Below, in pieces: positions 1,664-59,380 of a stretch of 64,000 nt of DNA. Both the position numbers and the translations under genes were made by a program. Each line of letters opens with the position of its first letter. Position 1 is the stretch's first letter. Source of the DNA: Escherichia coli (GTDB lineage Bacteria; Pseudomonadota; Gammaproteobacteria; Enterobacterales; Enterobacteriaceae); assembly GCF_013122565.1 (NCBI RefSeq), contig NZ_CP053258.1. The stretch is one strand, 5' to 3'. The notes under the pieces are model-generated. The model was not told where the DNA came from and ran no database searches. It saw only the letters and a program-made list of their open reading frames with translations.

Positions 1664-1876
1664 GAAAATACCTTAGTGGGTAAACGCTTACATTCTTTCA
1701 GTGTTACGGAAAACGCCCGTTGGTTCAAGGGGTGGCGTGTTTTCATCGTGGGAATGTGAGCCAAACGCAAATAAGTAAGACAAAAAAAGAGATTGCAAAC
1801 CTTTGGTTACACTTTGCGAAACGCTGTTGCGATTGACCGCTGGTGGCGTTTGGCTTCAGGTTGCTAAAGTGGTGAT

Positions 1877-1958
1877 CCCAGAGGTATTGATAGGTGAAGT
1901 CAACTTCGGGTTGAGCACATGAATTACACCAGCCTGCGCAGATGCGCAGGTTTTTTTT
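1877..1958 (+). ncRNA. omrB: OmrB small RNA (RygB), 82 nt
   Basis: Starts CCCAGAGGTATTGATAGGTGA and ends in a GC hairpin plus T-run; shares 5' and 3' ends with the copy at 2074; length and 116-nt spacing match my recollection of the K-12 aas-galR intergenic sRNAs. Confidence 0.85.
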
Positions 1959-2073
1959 TGCCGGTCATCAATCTGTAACAGTAACCGACAATTTACACAC
2001 CTCGTTGCATTTCCCTTCATTCCTTTGCGTTTTCTCGCTGGCGAAGAGTCGTCGTGCAGACCACAATCAAGAT

Positions 2074-2161
2074 CCCAGAGGTATTGATTGGTGAGATTAT
2101 TCGGTACGCTCTTCGTACCCTGTCTCTTGCACCAACCTGCGCGGATGCGCAGGTTTTTTTT
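2074..2161 (+). ncRNA. omrA: OmrA small RNA (RygA), 88 nt
   Basis: Starts CCCAGAGGTATTGATTGGTGAG and ends CTGCGCGGATGCGCAGG plus T-run; 88 nt and 88 nt upstream of the aas start, as I recall for K-12. Confidence 0.85.
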
Positions 2162-2227
2162 CGCACCTAATTTACTGTCGCTCGCGTTCTTTATCTCGTG
2201 TAATCTCCCTCCATTCGCTTTTACTGA

Positions 2228-5594
<3,367 letters not shown>

Positions 5595-30507: not shown

Positions 30508-30682
30508 TGTTTTTAATTTATTCAATGAATTTATGTTTCATTGAATAAATATTATTTACATAAATGTTGAACGATGGTTTTGTGACTGCTGTCGAATATT
30601 TGAATATCGGCTTAAAAAATAAGCCTGCCATCTCTTTTATTAAGCACAATTCCGTGTAAGGTATACGCATTAGTTAATTATC

Positions 30683-30754
30683 TTGTAACTGTTAAATCAG
30701 GCAAGGCAATGTTTGAAGTAATTATTACTTCTGACATGCCTTGCCTTTTTTTTT
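30683..30754 (+). promoter_or_regulatory. RAT-like sequence overlapping an intrinsic terminator (antitermination leader)
   Basis: TCTTGTAACTGTTAAATCAGGCAAGGCAA resembles bgl/sac RAT elements (TTGTTACTG...CAGGCAAAACC); it overlaps the 5' arm of a long imperfect hairpin (30698-30746) followed by a 9-T run; RBS GGAG and ATG 30766 follow immediately. Confidence 0.6.
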
Positions 30755-30765
30755 GGAGCCATGGA

Positions 30766-31590
30766 ATGATCATCGAAAAAGTCATGAACAATAATTGTGT
30801 ACAGGCATCGGTGAACGGACAGGAGGTTATCATTTCTGGGCCTGGCGTTGGTTACAATAAAAAATATGGTATGTCGGTCCCTGAACATCCTGCAAACCGG
30901 ATTTTTTATGTCAGAAATGAGCAAAAAAATAAACTCTACAAATTGATTGAGCATGTGGGTATTGAGTATATTTTTGTTGCCGAAAAGATAGTGCATTATG
31001 CGGAGAGTAATCTCGAAAAAAAACTCAATCCATCGCTACTACTGATTCTTGCTGATCACATTTCGAATGCAATATCCCGAGTCGTCTCAGGCATACAAAT
31101 TAATAATGTTTTCCTTGAGGAAATCAAAGCGTTGTACAAAGCAGAGTATGCAATAAGTCGTGATGCATTAACAATCATTAATGAGCAATTTAGCGTTCAA
31201 CTACCGGATGATGAGATTGGTTTTATAGCATTGCATATTTTAAATAATTATGAGAATTCAGTTGATTATGAATCAGTACGGATTATTGAGCTGTCTCAAA
31301 AAATCACGGAGCTTATTGAAGTAGTTTATAACAGAAGAGTGGACAGAAGTTCATTTAACTACTCCAGATTTATGATGCACCTTAAATATTTTTCTAGTCG
31401 TGTGTTATGTAATGAAAAAATAAAACAGAAAAATATTGGTGATATCTATGAGCAGTTTCTTGAAAAAGATTTTCAGTTACAACGTGCCATTCATGAAATT
31501 GAAAGATATCTGTACGCAACTTTTAAATATGATTTGATTCTGGAAGAAAAACTATATCTTTCTATTCGCATCAAAGTATTAATGGACTAA
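30766..31590 (+). CDS. BglG/LicT-family transcription antiterminator (CAT RNA-binding domain plus two PRD domains)
   Basis: Start at MIIEKVMNNNCVQASVNGQEVIISGPGVGY (CAT-domain pattern) with RBS GGAG 8 nt upstream; PRD-like histidines (LILADHISN, IALHILNN); about 274 aa; AT-rich codon usage. Confidence 0.75.
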   Translation: MIIEKVMNNNCVQASVNGQEVIISGPGVGYNKKYGMSVPEHPANRIFYVRNEQKNKLYKLIEHVGIEYIFVAEKIVHYAESNLEKKLNPSLLLILADHISNAISRVVSGIQINNVFLEEIKALYKAEYAISRDALTIINEQFSVQLPDDEIGFIALHILNNYENSVDYESVRIIELSQKITELIEVVYNRRVDRSSFNYSRFMMHLKYFSSRVLCNEKIKQKNIGDIYEQFLEKDFQLQRAIHEIERYLYATFKYDLILEEKLYLSIRIKVLMD

Positions 31591-31621
31591 TTATACATAA
31601 CATTTTCATGAGATAACCCGT

Positions 31622-33202
31622 ATGAAACAAAAGAAAGCCTGGAGTTTTTTTCAGAGCCTGGGGAAGGCATTTATGTATCCCATCGCTCTGTTAAGTGTAT
31701 GTGGTATGATGTTAGGGCTGGGAAGTGGTTTAGCCAGCGATGATATGGCAAAATTAATTCCAGTGTTGGCTATTCCGTTAATTAAAACCATACTTGATTT
31801 TATTGTTAGCCTTGGTTTGTTTGCCTTCGTTAATTTACCTGTATTGTTTGCGATAGCTATACCTTTGGGATTATTAAAAGAGAAAGATGATAAAGCCTAT
31901 GGCGCTTTTTCTGGCTTAATTGGCTTTATGGCGATGCATCTTGGAACGAACTTTTATCTTAAACAGCACGACTTATTGGTAGCTGCTGACCAAATGTCGA
32001 CACATGGGCAAACCATCATACTCGGGATCCAGTCATACAATACCAGCGTGTTGGGTGGGATTGTGGCAGGGTTATTAGTCGCCAGCATGTATAAAAAGAT
32101 CGTTAACTTACGTATTCCTGAATCATTAGGGTTTTATAGTGGCCCACGCCTGGTGCCTATCATTACACTGATTGTGATGAGTGGATTTGGTCTGATCATT
32201 CCTTTTATCTGGCCGCCATTTTTCAATCTTTTCATGCTCATTGGTCACTGGATTTCAACTTCCGGTCCTGTTGGTTATTTCTTCTATGCTGTTGCCGAAC
32301 GCGTGACGATACCTTTTGGCTTAAATCACTTGGTGACATCAGTTTTCCGCTTTACCCCAATCGGCGGATCGGCAGTGATTGGCGGTGAAGAGTATTACGG
32401 CACCCTGAACATGTTTATGGCATACGTCAAAGAGAATGCGGTCATTCCGCTGGATTTGGCGGGGAAAATGGAGCAGGGCAAACTGATGATTCAGTATGGT
32501 CTGGCTGGAGCCGCGCTGGCGATGTATCGCACTGCTCATGCTCAAAACAGAAGGGCTATCAAAGCATTGCTGATTTCCGGTGTGCTCACGGTAATTATTG
32601 GCGGCGTCAGCGAGCCGATTGAATTTCTGTTCTTATTTGTCAGCCCGCTGTTGTTTGTCTTCCATGCCTTTATGAATGGATTGGCTAACATGGTTCTGCC
32701 ATATATGGGCGTGAAGATGGGCTTTACTGGCGATCTGATTCAATTTATTAGCTTTGGTGTCTTACGTGGCACAAGAACGGGATGGCCATTAGCGGTATGT
32801 GTTGAAGTGGCTTATTTCTTCATTTATTACTTTGTGTTCCGTTGGACCATTCTCAAATTTAACCTGATGACTGTAGGCCGTGAAGAGTCCAGTCCTGTCA
32901 CGCTGAACGCTCACGAAGAAACTGCAATAGCTAACATCCCAGTTCATGATAAATCAGAGTTGCAGGCAGCGGAGCAAATGGTTAAGGCTCTGGGTGGTAA
33001 AGAAAATATTAAATCACTGGATAATTGTGTAACTCGTTTGCGTTTAACTATCGCGGATATGGGATTGATAGATGAGGCTGCAATAAAAAGGGCCGGAGGA
33101 ATTGCGGTTGTGAAACTTGATCAAAATACCTTACAAGTCATTATCGGTACAAAAGTCATCGCACTACGTCGGGATATGGATAACTACATGGGGATATGTT
33201 GA
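31622..33202 (+). CDS. PTS EIICB component, glucose/maltose (MalX-like) family
   Basis: 526 aa; N-terminus FFQSLGKAFMYPIALLSVCGMMLGLGS and C-terminal EIIB motif SLDNCVTRLRL closely resemble MalX/PtsG as I remember them; no EIIA domain. Confidence 0.8.
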   Translation: MKQKKAWSFFQSLGKAFMYPIALLSVCGMMLGLGSGLASDDMAKLIPVLAIPLIKTILDFIVSLGLFAFVNLPVLFAIAIPLGLLKEKDDKAYGAFSGLIGFMAMHLGTNFYLKQHDLLVAADQMSTHGQTIILGIQSYNTSVLGGIVAGLLVASMYKKIVNLRIPESLGFYSGPRLVPIITLIVMSGFGLIIPFIWPPFFNLFMLIGHWISTSGPVGYFFYAVAERVTIPFGLNHLVTSVFRFTPIGGSAVIGGEEYYGTLNMFMAYVKENAVIPLDLAGKMEQGKLMIQYGLAGAALAMYRTAHAQNRRAIKALLISGVLTVIIGGVSEPIEFLFLFVSPLLFVFHAFMNGLANMVLPYMGVKMGFTGDLIQFISFGVLRGTRTGWPLAVCVEVAYFFIYYFVFRWTILKFNLMTVGREESSPVTLNAHEETAIANIPVHDKSELQAAEQMVKALGGKENIKSLDNCVTRLRLTIADMGLIDEAAIKRAGGIAVVKLDQNTLQVIIGTKVIALRRDMDNYMGIC

Positions 33203-34410
33203 TGGATATTTTTAATACCTCAATTTCTCGTAAAGGAACATATTGCACACAATGGGACTTTTGTGAAGACAGATTTGGTGTAAAAGATGTATTACCATTC
33301 TCTATTTCAGATATGGATCTTCCGATACCGGAAGCTATCATCAGAACATTAAAAAAACGTCTGGAACACCCGATTTTAGGGTACAGTCGTTGGCAGCATG
33401 ATGACTATCTGAATTCGATAGTCAATTGGTATCATCAACAATATAAAACAGAGATTCAACCAGAATGGATCACCTATAGCCCAAGCGTGATGTATTCAAT
33501 ATCTAAGGCAATAGAAATATTGACATTGAATGGAGATAATATTCTCATTTTCACGCCTGTTTATAACGCATTTTATGATGTGATTAAGCATAATGGTCGA
33601 AACATGCTAACAACCTCTTTGATGAAAGAAAATGGGAGAGGCTACGTTATCAACTGGCAAGACTTTGAGCTTAAAATTAAAAGCGCGAAGATGGTGTTAT
33701 TATGTAATCCTCATAACCCGACAGGAACGGTCTGGTCGGAAGACGATCTTCACAGAATCGCAGCATGCTGTGCAAGGCATAATATTTGGTTATGTTCAGA
33801 TGAAATACATAGTGATTTTGTTTTTAATCATAGTTTCACGTCAGCGCTAACAATAAAAGATGACAAAGTGGTGGTGTTTAATTCGATTTCGAAAACATTT
33901 AATGTTCCTGCGCTAACCGGATCATATATGATTTCAACTGACGATAATTTTAATCATAAGTTCAGAACGATATCGAGGTATCGCGATTTTGTAAACTCCC
34001 CATCAGTACTGAATGTAATTGCGACCATTGTTGCCTATAATGAATGTGAAGAATGGTTAAAGTCATTAAAGGTACATATTGCCTCTAACATTCAATTTAC
34101 CTTGCAGTATTTAAATGAAAATATTCCGGAATTGATCGTATGGCCAGCTGAGGGCTGCTATTTTTCGTGGGTTGATTGCTCGGCCCTTGGTTATCCCTTT
34201 GATAAATTTTACCGTCGATTAATTAACGAAGGGAGAGTAGGTATTATGGCGGGGCATGTTTATGGTACTGAAGGAGAGGGCTATCTGCGTCTTAATCTGG
34301 CCTGCAGTCGAGAAAAATTATATATGGGGCTTGCGCGCCTTGCGAGTGTAATTAAAAATATTAATCAGGAAAAAGAAAATGAACAATACGGATCTTATCC
34401 ATCTTATTAA
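33202..34410 (+). CDS. PLP-dependent C-S lyase / aminotransferase class I-II, MalY/PatB-like
   Basis: N-terminus GTYCTQWDF..DRFG..DVLPFSISDMD closely parallels MalY (GTWCTQWDY..DRFG..LLPFTISDMD); start taken at ATG 33202 (TGATG overlap with the PTS stop, GGGGA 7 nt upstream); alternative ATG at 33196. Confidence 0.78.
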   Translation: MDIFNTSISRKGTYCTQWDFCEDRFGVKDVLPFSISDMDLPIPEAIIRTLKKRLEHPILGYSRWQHDDYLNSIVNWYHQQYKTEIQPEWITYSPSVMYSISKAIEILTLNGDNILIFTPVYNAFYDVIKHNGRNMLTTSLMKENGRGYVINWQDFELKIKSAKMVLLCNPHNPTGTVWSEDDLHRIAACCARHNIWLCSDEIHSDFVFNHSFTSALTIKDDKVVVFNSISKTFNVPALTGSYMISTDDNFNHKFRTISRYRDFVNSPSVLNVIATIVAYNECEEWLKSLKVHIASNIQFTLQYLNENIPELIVWPAEGCYFSWVDCSALGYPFDKFYRRLINEGRVGIMAGHVYGTEGEGYLRLNLACSREKLYMGLARLASVIKNINQEKENEQYGSYPSY

Positions 34411-34975
34411 ACATTTTATGCGTAACGAACATAAAGCAGTAGAAGAGGTTATTGATTCCCCCCTTTCGGAAGTCGCGAATTTAATTAAAATATTACAATC
34501 TTGCCAGGGAAAAGTTGTTTTTATTGGTGTTGGGAAATCTGGCATTATTGCCAGAAAACTTGCTGCAACATTTGCCAGCACCGGAACTCCCTCGTTTTTT
34601 GTTCACGGTACGGAAGCGGTACACGGCGACCTTGGGATGGTGGCGAAAGACGATGTTGTTATTCTTATTTCAAACAGTGGTGAGACGGCGGAAATCCTGG
34701 CGACACTGCCTAGTTTGAAAAAAATGGGTAATTATTTGATCTCTTTTACCCGCAGTCATCACTCATCGCTTGCGATAAGTTGTGATTTATCTGTTGAAAT
34801 CCCCGTCAAAAGTGAGGCGGATAATTTAGGTTTAGCACCGTCATGCTCGTCTACTGTTGTTCTGGTTGTTGGTGATGCGGTGGCGCTTGCACTCTCTGAA
34901 TTGAAAAAATTTACTCGTGCTGATTTCGGCTTATATCATCCAGGAGGTGCACTCGGCATTAAAGCAAATTCATAA
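34379..34975 (+). CDS. SIS-domain sugar-phosphate isomerase (KdsD/GutQ-type SIS without CBS domains; candidate arabinose-5-phosphate isomerase)
   Basis: 198 aa; VFIGVGKSGIIARKLAATFASTGTPSFFVHGTEAVHGDLGMV matches the N-terminal SIS domain of arabinose-5-P isomerases; no CBS tail; RBS AGGA upstream; overlaps the upstream gene by 32 nt. Confidence 0.75.
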   Translation: MNNTDLIHLIKHFMRNEHKAVEEVIDSPLSEVANLIKILQSCQGKVVFIGVGKSGIIARKLAATFASTGTPSFFVHGTEAVHGDLGMVAKDDVVILISNSGETAEILATLPSLKKMGNYLISFTRSHHSSLAISCDLSVEIPVKSEADNLGLAPSCSSTVVLVVGDAVALALSELKKFTRADFGLYHPGGALGIKANS

Positions 34976-35046
34976 TTTCAAAGTATAAATACAGTAACCG
35001 GTCACGCCATCTTTTGGGGTGGCGTTCATTGAAGTGAGTGTCAGCT

Positions 35047-35994
35047 ATGAAAAATGTTCTGGTCACCGTCCCCAGCTTTTCAGCACGCTGTGTTTCCGCC
35101 AGCAAGTTGCTAAGAGAGAATAATTTTAACCTTATTATTAAGAATAATGTGGAGCATCTGCTTAAATCAGAATCCACTGCATTACGAGAATCTATTTGCG
35201 CGGTCATCGCCGGAAAAGATTGTTACCAGGCGGACACGCTATCATTGCTGCCTGGTGTGAGAATAATATCGAGATTCGGGACGGGGATAGATAATATTGA
35301 TCTTCGTGCAGCACAACAATCCGGTATTGTAGTCAATAATGCGGTTGGGATTAATTCAAATGCTGTCGCGGAATTTATCATTGGACTTATCTTCGCGAGC
35401 ATGAGAAATATTCCTGGCAGCTATCATGCGATGCAAAATGGCTACTGGGGTGAGTCGCATGGCTATGAATTACAAGGCAAACGGATTGGCCTGGTTGGCT
35501 ACGGCAATATAGGTAAAACCCTGGCAAAAAGGTTATCCGGTTTTGATGTTGAGCTTTTAGCTTATGACAAACAACCCGATTATCAGGTTGCTGACAAAGT
35601 TGGAGTTCAGTTTGTATCAATTGAAGATATCTTTATGCAGTCGCATGTCATCATTGTTCTTTTGCCTTTTTCTCCTGAGCTGGAGAACTTCATTAGTCAT
35701 AAATATTTGTCGATGATGCGCAATGGTGCTCTAATCATCAATGCCGCAAGGGGAAAGTTGCTGGATGAGGGCGCTTTACTACAGGTGATTGAAGAACGAA
35801 ATGTGTTTGCGGCGCTGGATGTGTTTAGCTCTGAACCGTTGGCGCAATTTAGCCCACTGCTACATGCCAAAAATATCATTACAACGCCGCATATTGCGGC
35901 CGCCACCGTTGAGTCATACCAGCAAACCGGTACACACGTTGCCCAGTCGATAATTGATTACTTCGCAGGAAGGGAGATAAAAAACGTGTTGTGA
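35047..35994 (+). CDS. D-isomer-specific 2-hydroxyacid dehydrogenase (NAD-binding)
   Basis: About 315 aa; Rossmann motif GLVGYGNIGKTLAKR; family-typical TTPHIAAAT near the C-terminus; alternative GTG start at 35038. Confidence 0.75.
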   Translation: MKNVLVTVPSFSARCVSASKLLRENNFNLIIKNNVEHLLKSESTALRESICAVIAGKDCYQADTLSLLPGVRIISRFGTGIDNIDLRAAQQSGIVVNNAVGINSNAVAEFIIGLIFASMRNIPGSYHAMQNGYWGESHGYELQGKRIGLVGYGNIGKTLAKRLSGFDVELLAYDKQPDYQVADKVGVQFVSIEDIFMQSHVIIVLLPFSPELENFISHKYLSMMRNGALIINAARGKLLDEGALLQVIEERNVFAALDVFSSEPLAQFSPLLHAKNIITTPHIAAATVESYQQTGTHVAQSIIDYFAGREIKNVL

Positions 35995-36020
35995 GTTCAG
36001 CGAACGAAGTTTTTAAATAC

Positions 36021-36056
36021 AAAAAAACCGCAATTTGTGGAACACATTGCGGTTTA
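36021..36056 (-). terminator. Intrinsic terminator downstream of tRNA-fMet (minus strand)
   Basis: Minus-strand hairpin AACCGCAAT / ATTGCGGTT followed by a 7-T run, immediately 3' of the tRNA. Confidence 0.6.
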
Positions 36057-36062
36057 TCAGCA

Positions 36063-36139
<77 letters not shown>

Positions 36140-36357
36140 CCACCCCGCGTCCGTGGATGCGCACTATACTCCGCTCGCGTTTTCATGCAACCTTTTTTTT
36201 ACCCCGATCACGGTTCTGGCATGATTTTGAACAAAAACAAATCACTAAAGCCTATTTTTTGTGCAAAATTTGCGTCAGGGAGAGGCTGCTCATTTCATTA
36301 AACGCGGCGGTTTGTTATCTTCGTTGCGCCTTATTTTTTAACCTGAAGAAGAGAACA

Positions 36358-37543: not shown

Positions 37544-37641
37544 GCCGGATGCGGCGTGAACGCCTTATCCGGCCTACAAATCATGCAAATCCAAAATATT
37601 GCAGGAGTTATGTAGGCCTGATAAGCGTAGCGCATCAGGCA
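37544..37641. repeat. BIME: two inverted REP elements
   Basis: GCCGGATGCGGCGTGAACGCCTTATCCGGCCTACA (37544-37578) and the inverted copy TGTAGGCCTGATAAGCGTAGCGCATCAGGCA (37611-37641). Confidence 0.75.
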
Positions 37642-40634: not shown

Positions 40635-40840
40635 AAAAAAAAGCACCGCAATTAGGCGGTGCTACATTAATCACTATGGACAGACAGGGTAAATGTACAG
40701 GAAGTGAAAAAAGGTAGCTTTGCTACCATGGTCTGAATCGCAGACCAATTGCAAACACAACAACACAACATCACAACCGTAAGCCAAAAGTTCACCAGAA
40801 CACGCATTCCGATAAAACTTTTCGTTCCGGCTCAGGAAGT
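40635..40840 (-). ncRNA. gcvB: GcvB small RNA
   Basis: Minus-strand read begins ACTTCCTGAGCCGGAACGAAAAGTTTTATCGG and ends GCACCGCCTAATTGCGGTGC plus U-run; includes the GT-rich stretch TGTTGTGTTGTTGTGTT; 206 nt, divergent from gcvA. Confidence 0.88.
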
Positions 40841-59011: not shown

Positions 59012-59380
59012 GTCGACAGGGAGTCAGACAACGAAGTGAACATCAGGATGATGACACTTCTGAAGGACACACCAGGATGGTGTTTCAGGGAAAGGCTTCT
59101 GGATGAAGCGAAGAGGATGACGCAGGACGCGTTAAAGGACACCTCCAGGATGGAGAATGAGAACCGGTCAGGATGATCCGGTGGGTCAGGAAGGCCAGGG
59201 ACACTTCAGGATGAAGTATCACATCGGGGTGGTGTGAGCAGGAAGCAATAGTTCAGGATGAACGATTGGCCGCAAGGCCAGAGGAAAAGTTGTCAAGGAT
59301 GAGCAGGGAGCAACAAAAGTAGCTGGAATGCTGCGAAACGAACCGGGAGCACTGTGAATACAGTGCTCCCTTTTTTTATT
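59012..59380 (+). ncRNA. csrB: CsrB small RNA (CsrA-sequestering)
   Basis: About 369 nt with roughly 20 GGA motifs (CAGGATG, AGGACA and similar) and a 3' terminator GGGAGCACTGTGAATACAGTGCTCCC plus T-run; between syd and yqcC as in K-12; the 5' end is approximate within about 10 nt. Confidence 0.88.

Follow-up and report, generated by a model that had tools for sequence, protein, structure and literature searches.

Introduction

OmrA and OmrB are small RNAs (sRNAs) whose regulation, targets and mechanism have been extensively studied, with papers up to 2026, and which have been described as individual transcription units (PMC13425233). The conserved 5′ end of both RNAs pairs in vivo close to the site at which translation of ompT, cirA and ompR begins; repression requires Hfq as well as RNase E, and by repressing ompR the RNAs complete a feedback loop (PMC2588501). 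Hfq binding and repression dependent on Hfq and RNase E are also described for the Omr sRNAs in PMC6443205. Phosphorylated OmpR activates both promoters in vitro, and activation of PomrA by OmpR requires more than 60 nt upstream of the transcription start site (TSS), as truncation at −60 abolishes the response (PMC5175337). PomrA contains four conserved boxes, and multicopy RstAB activates omrB only (PMC13425233). The C at position −12 of PomrA is a specificity determinant for sigma-S (PMC12692685, section 2.2). Species with a single copy have either OmrB or a chimaera in which omrB's promoter is joined to the omrA body (PMC13425233). A ribosome-profiling study of acid stress from 2023 proposes small open reading frames inside the two genes, sORF11 in omrA and sORF12 in omrB (PMC10746267).

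Here we describe the corresponding locus in the window, by which we mean the whole 64,000-nt stretch of Escherichia coli DNA that was analyzed. Identity, boundaries, structure, conservation, promoter elements and the seed complementarity to ompR and ompT were computed here, whereas Hfq dependence, control by OmpR, sigma-S and RstA, and the repression of targets are taken from the literature.

Identification of the omrB and omrA Genes

The region between galR and aas almost certainly contains two independent genes on the same strand, encoding the paralogous Hfq-dependent sRNAs OmrB (1877–1958) and OmrA (2074–2161; Table 1). A first-pass annotation, made from the sequence alone, had placed the two RNAs in tandem upstream of aas, and an Rfam/Infernal scan bears this out: both stretches match the family RF00079 (OmrA-B) over the full model (positions 1–87 of 87) and at exactly the coordinates proposed, with 86.1 bits (E = 2.9e-16) for OmrB and 96.6 bits (E = 8e-19) for OmrA, well over the gathering threshold of 40 bits. 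With such E-values the resemblance is not due to chance. The proposed lengths agree with the Rfam boundaries as well as with the annotation of E. coli K-12, and direct comparison with K-12 omrA and omrB showed sequences that are one T apart and otherwise identical, in the order omrB, omrA, aas on one strand. There is no evidence against the identification. The spacings given in the first-pass annotation, 116 and 88 nt, are each one too many, because differences of coordinates had been quoted instead of gap lengths; the gap between the two genes is 115 nt (1959–2073), and that between omrA and the aas start codon 87 nt (2162–2248).

Table 1. Features of the omrB-omrA locus and of other regions of the window.
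Feature	Position	Strand	Remarks
galR	632–1663	−	343 aa; divergent upstream neighbor; K-12 b2837; beside the sRNA copies in other species (tblastn)
omrB upstream box	1797–1817	+	−80 to −60, AACCTTTGGTTACACTTTGCG; 90–100% conserved in 32 tandem loci; holds the published OmpR/RstA-type site (box B2)
omrB second box	1824–1836	+	−53 to −41, CTGTTGCGATTGA; conservation map; partly common to the omrA promoter (TTGCG.TT...CGCTGG)
omrB −10 element, TAAAGT	1865–1870	+	invariant A1866 and T1870; T at −12; conserved TG (1862–1863) before it
OmrB sRNA	1877–1958	+	82 nt (83 counting the ninth T at 1959); RF00079; K-12 omrB b4445
OmrB parts	seed 1877–1897; central hairpin 1900–1914; terminator hairpin 1931–1952; T-run 1951–1959	+	fold, terminator scan
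sORF12 candidate	1887–1922	+	11 aa, LIGEVNFGLST; TTG at OmrB nt 11; K-12 2976340–2976375; PMC10746267 Table S7
omrA upstream boxes	about 1974–1982, 2004–2012, 2025–2033, 2037–2041	+	conservation map
omrA −10 element, CACAAT	2062–2067	+	invariant A2063 and T2067; C at −12
OmrA sRNA	2074–2161	+	88 nt; RF00079; K-12 omrA b4444
OmrA parts	seed 2074–2094; central hairpin 2103–2119; terminator hairpin 2134–2155; T-run 2154–2161	+	fold, terminator scan
sORF11 candidate	2084–2170	+	28 aa; TTG at OmrA nt 11; K-12 2976093–2976179; PMC10746267 Table S7
78-aa TTG ORF	2088–2324	+	ORF track; spurious; starts at OmrA nt 15
aas	2249–4408	+	719 aa; downstream neighbor; K-12 b2836; synteny conserved
lplT	4401–5594	+	after aas; K-12 b2835
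ES036	37577–37619	+	Rfam 46.5 bits, above threshold
GcvB	40635–40840	−	Rfam 199 bits; position expected from K-12 collinearity
CsrB	59021–59380	+	Rfam 384 bits; position expected from K-12 collinearity

Modular Structure of the Two RNAs

The two genes resemble each other at both ends. The 5′ ends, described at the outset as nearly identical, carry CCCAGAGGTATTGAT at 1877–1891 and 2074–2088, and a repeat search identified a 24-nt direct repeat of 96% identity (1874–1897 and 2071–2094) that spans them. At the level of the RNA both start with CCCAGAGGUAUUGAU.GGUGA, and 20 of 21 nt are the same in both copies. A second direct repeat, of 38 nt and 89% identity (1924–1961 and 2127–2164), spans the shared 3′ ends with the hairpin strings CTGCGCAGATGCGCAGG (1934–1950) and CTGCGCGGATGCGCAGG (2137–2153), both present and near-identical as the first-pass annotation had them. 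The centers of OmrB and OmrA do differ, as was also proposed.

The minimum free energy (MFE) z-scores of the two RNAs are −2.9 and −2.7. In the MFE fold of OmrA no base of the 5′ end is paired, and in the Rfam consensus most of it is single-stranded as well. A terminator scan found 9 base pairs in each of the two hairpins listed in Table 1, 6 of them G-C, followed by 9 T in OmrB and 8 T in OmrA. When 101 distinct copies were aligned, the bases of the terminator helix proved paired in 99.9% of cases, and 4 of its 8 pairs show compensatory replacement of both partners (29 sequences, for instance, have A-U in place of G-C, and 7 have C-G in place of U-A). The covariation score was reached by none of 500 shuffles, and in controls with slid partners the paired fraction falls to 18–53%.

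GGUG/CACC in the outer stem does not vary, but the search pattern with which the copies were collected fixes four of the five columns on its 5′ side, so that this carries little weight; as the pattern prescribed nt 1–15 and 17–20, the invariance of seed and outer stem is partly an ascertainment effect. MAFFT was unable to align the central parts of the paralogs structurally, and pairs were therefore counted for the outer stem and the terminator only, while the central hairpin was assessed by folding each copy singly. Of 142 unique copies, 98% fold at their center into a hairpin with 4 or more base pairs, although its sequence turns over.

Promoter Elements

A scan of positions 1600–2400 for the sigma-70 consensus found no promoter, which fits promoters that are weak and dependent on activators. 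The promoters were therefore located by cross-species conservation and by the positions of published mutations rather than by consensus. An alignment of 32 tandem loci places both −10 hexamers (Table 1) with their ends 7 nt upstream of the RNA starts at 1877 and 2074. When the TSS of omrB is placed at 1877, T-75C and A-68G, the published PomrB mutations, coincide with T1802 and A1809 (PMC13425233), which provides an independent check of this start. Similarly, the published −12C of PomrA and −12T of PomrB match C2062 and T1865 (PMC12692685). The omrB box at 1824–1836 is, by inference, probably box B1 of PMC13425233.

Several other elements were seen around the promoters. A 10-nt inverted repeat flanking the omrB promoter (I2, 1759–1768 and 1846–1855) is not conserved and was set aside as chance. 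The same 32 loci share a conserved block (…CAGTGTTACGGAAAACG…) at 1690–1713, 30–50 nt upstream of the galR start codon, possibly a promoter or operator sequence of galR. Another conserved block, CTCGTGTAATCT, lies at 2195–2206 between the OmrA terminator and the start codon of aas, with invariant A2202 and T2206; its last six nucleotides, TAATCT (2201–2206), are a candidate −10 element of an aas promoter.

Proposed Mode of Action and Seed Complementarity

In the mechanism we consider, each Omr gene would be transcribed from its own weak, activator-dependent promoter and end at its own intrinsic terminator. According to the literature, phosphorylated OmpR, the output of EnvZ-OmpR, switches on both promoters, with omrA also needing sigma-S via the C at −12, and with omrB open to activation by multicopy RstAB. 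Each RNA consists of three modules: a stretch of about 21 nt at the 5′ end, unpaired and nearly invariant, which is predicted to pair with the mRNAs of its targets close to the ribosome-binding site; a central hairpin that varies and sets the paralogs apart; and a GC-rich terminator hairpin with its U-tail, the usual module for the binding of Hfq. In the literature, pairing blocks translation and promotes RNase E-dependent decay of mRNAs such as ompT, cirA, fecA, fepA, csgD and flhDC, and with ompR-envZ as a further target a negative feedback loop is closed.

Duplex energies of nt 1–21 were calculated against the region from −60 to +30 of ompT, ompR and cirA, with 39 K-12 genes as background. 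For the translation initiation region (TIR) of ompT the values are −19.3 kcal/mol (OmrA) and −17.8 kcal/mol (OmrB), and none of the 39 background TIRs is as good. For ompR they are −16.9 and −19.0 kcal/mol, which 3 and none of the 39, respectively, equal; both of these targets stand out from the background. The cirA TIR gives −13.6 kcal/mol with either RNA, and 11–12 of the 39 background regions do as well; as cirA is a published target and nevertheless stands at background level, seed complementarity alone is a weak test.

Conservation Among Enterobacterales

Scanning one genome per species with the 5′-end pattern yielded 120 loci, none of them outside Enterobacterales. The 5′ 15-mer occurs twice in 50 of these loci and once in the other 70, a count of single copies to which loci truncated at the edge of a contig or of the fetched stretch may have contributed. 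Wherever the flanks are present, the copies sit between galR and aas. The center of the single copies is either OmrA-like or OmrB-like, which fits the published statement on single-copy species (PMC13425233).

Species of Pantoea and Erwinia (seven loci: L011, L056, L062, L070, L088, L091 and L102) have two copies separated by about 2.0 kb rather than some 200 nt. In Pantoea stewartii (L011, 2747–4879) a gene for a class B penicillin-binding protein of 579 aa, with PBP dimerization and transpeptidase domains, is found between the copies.

Distribution in E. coli and Annotation

The K-12 MG1655 reference has the same layout as the window, in the order galR, omrB, omrA, aas, lplT. Over the 585 nt of the galR-aas intergenic region (1664–2248) a single difference from MG1655 was found, an extra T: the OmrB T-run counts 9 T in the window (1951–1959) and 8 T in K-12, so the 3′ end of OmrB could equally be 1959. 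The 9-T variant is common to many E. coli strains; in ATCC 8739 and one O157:H7 strain the region has 100% identity with that of the window, whereas K-12 derivatives give matches of 584 nt. Nearly all complete E. coli genomes match the region (5423 of 5426), 5405 of them over at least 80% of its length and 5298 at an identity of at least 99%.

In one strain, E. coli 300709 (NZ_CP025903.1), the space separating omrB from omrA is interrupted by an IS3-family element, which sits some 62 nt upstream of where omrA starts, at the equivalent of window position 2011/2012 or thereabouts. Given that PomrA truncated at −60 was unresponsive to OmpR in the literature, the insertion may have uncoupled omrA from OmpR in this strain, judging from its position in the sequence. 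One match in the E. coli collection is filed under a plasmid. Among the PLSDB matches we considered plasmid-borne copies and rejected them: the three PLSDB records that match in full and contain the entire galR-aas region (NZ_OL790696.1, NZ_CP141089.1 and NZ_CP134663.1) measure 4.8–4.9 Mb and look like chromosomes filed as plasmids. The fourth PLSDB match is partial (72% of the length, 84% identity) and lies on a 728-kb Salmonella record.

The PGAP RefSeq records of E. coli that were listed or examined have no ncRNA feature for omrA or omrB, though Rfam detects both easily; compared with the PGAP records listed, only the curated K-12 record annotates the two genes. As a consequence, and this is a practical point of the present analysis, the automated ORF track displays nothing at omrA and omrB except a spurious 78-aa ORF.

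Alternative Readings of the Locus

According to the first alternative, OmrA and OmrB would be dual-function RNAs, on which a TTG at nt 11 starts peptides of 28 aa (omrA) and 11 aa (omrB) in severe acid stress. We consider this very improbable. The sizes and sequences of the two candidates match the window exactly, and a GAGG at nt 5–8 precedes the TTG, but at a distance of only 2 nt, which is too close for normal Shine-Dalgarno spacing. The stop codon of sORF11 lies 9 nt beyond the 3′ end of OmrA, so that the terminated RNA has no stop; were the peptide made, only read-through of the terminator would spare a ribosome on OmrA from reaching the 3′ end of an RNA that lacks a stop. Abundant Hfq-bound sRNAs can yield non-ribosomal footprints in Ribo-seq, which we count against both candidates. 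Ribosome-protected fragments do increase on both genes at pH 4.4, with a log2FC of 3.25 (adjusted P 5.7e-12) for sORF11 and of 2.68 for sORF12, but the changes in translation efficiency are not significant (adjusted P 0.18 and 0.38; PMC10746267). Both candidates were predicted by DeepRibo and retained after visual inspection; DeepRibo is prone to false positives by the authors’ own account, and only sORF15 was confirmed by tagging (PMC10746267).

Comparison between species weighs in the same direction. The sORF11 frame in OmrA-like copies varies from 6 to more than 700 codons, and its end switches between ...LSLAPTCADAQVFF and ...CLLHQPARMRRFFF among close relatives, while the sORF12 frame in OmrB-like copies of other species covers 6–70 codons. 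Measured from the conserved 5′ start to the conserved 3′ module, the phase takes all three values (15, 27 and 20 copies among the OmrA-like, 28, 24 and 27 among the OmrB-like), and nucleotides conserved between related species fall into different frames from one to the next. A frame conserved in length, phase and peptide, as looked for in a dual-function RNA, was not found among these copies, in which the frames from nt 11 and nt 15 range from 0 to hundreds of codons. Both sORF11 and sORF12 are accordingly judged, on sequence comparison, to be free of coding constraint, and the unstable frames and the spread of phases indicate that what is under selection is the RNA rather than a peptide. The comparative data exclude a conserved peptide, and are compatible with a young translation confined to E. 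coli or with a regulatory effect of ribosomes loaded on the seed. Micropeptides of 28 and 11 aa made from the nt-11 TTG in E. coli only, during severe acid stress, are thus the form that a dual function would take, and in this form too we give it little credence. That the sORF candidates in OmrA and OmrB lack support from comparative genomics is worth knowing before effort is invested in them.

It is even less probable that the OmrA element mainly acts in cis as a leader or attenuator of aas, with transcription from the omrA promoter reading into aas-lplT. OmrA does lie on the strand of aas and just 87 nt upstream of it, and Rfam reports matches to the leucine operon leader (Leu_leader, RF00512) over both copies. 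These reach 27.8 and 23.2 bits, far below the threshold of 50, and the portion that scores is the terminator stem with its T-run; we rejected this match as a terminator look-alike. Moreover, the OmrA terminator is strong (8–9 bp, with 6 G-C pairs, and 8 U), the separate conserved block with its −10-like TAATCT between terminator and gene suggests that aas has a promoter of its own, the copies in Pantoea and Erwinia lie about 2 kb apart with another gene between them, and both RNAs are individual transcription units in the literature (PMC13425233). If some read-through into aas occurs, it would be a side effect of the transcription of omrA as an sRNA gene.

That the 78-aa ORF, which overlaps OmrA and the beginning of aas, really codes for a protein can practically be dismissed: it has 78 open codons, a TTG start that is kept in 61 of 74 species and the GAGG of the sRNA 6 nt upstream of this TTG, but it runs through the OmrA terminator hairpin and T-run to a stop 163 nt past the 3′ end of the RNA, overlaps aas out of frame, and is called as a CDS neither by the curated K-12 annotation nor by PGAP. 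The persistence of the TTG is explained by constraint on the RNA, since its two G’s are part of the outer stem, where GGUG is paired to CACC, and at the corresponding triplet OmrB has TAG. In 74 loci with a copy adjoining aas, the frame has a median open length of 30 codons (range 0–127), with an ORF like that of E. coli in only 7; in E. albertii it comprises 47 codons, and in 18 loci indels bring it into phase with aas. A Pfam search gave no match for this ORF or for an intergenic ORF of 50 aa. The first-pass annotation had called the ORF almost certainly spurious, and its failure to stay open in other species effectively refutes a coding role. The frame of sORF11 and sORF12 differs from that of the 78-aa ORF, and as these candidates are moreover neither validated by tagging nor conserved, they do not amount to evidence that the 78-aa ORF is translated.

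Other Features of the Window

Further regulatory RNAs identified in the window by Rfam are included in Table 1. At the position of K-12 metW and metV the window contains a 5.56-kb segment (30509–36070) that is absent from MG1655, next to the single initiator tRNA-Met gene that was kept (36073–36149). Its predicted products are a BglG-type antiterminator with PRD and CAT RNA-binding domains, a PTS EIIC/EIIB permease, a class I/II aminotransferase, a SIS-domain protein and a D-2-hydroxyacid dehydrogenase.

Comparison With Known Systems

The likeness of the locus to the leucine operon leader (RF00512) consists of a G+C-rich terminator hairpin followed by a T-run. Neither a leader peptide with Leu codons nor downstream leu genes are present at the Omr locus, and we regard the resemblance as chance.

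PrrF1 and PrrF2 of Pseudomonas aeruginosa are likewise adjacent, duplicated sRNA genes on the same strand, each with its own promoter and terminator and with largely overlapping targets; they differ from the Omr pair in family, in regulator (Fur) and in organism. MicF and MicC are, like the Omr RNAs, Hfq-dependent, trans-acting and responsive to EnvZ-OmpR, and pair near the ribosome-binding site of mRNAs for envelope proteins. Their sequences and families have no known relation to those of the Omr RNAs, however, and they are encoded by single-copy genes at other loci and are not known to match RF00079. MicF is also named in PMC13425233.

The closest known system is E. coli K-12 itself, with omrA (b4444, formerly rygA/sraE) and omrB (b4445, formerly rygB). 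OmrA is identical at 88 of 88 nt and OmrB at 82 of 82 nt, and gene order, strand, flanking genes, promoters and terminators are all the same, the only difference being the extra T of the window in the T-run of the OmrB terminator. With so much already published on both RNAs, the discovery value of the locus is slight: these are textbook sRNA genes, already known, and the sole oddity of the pair described here is a common one-T variant in terminator length.
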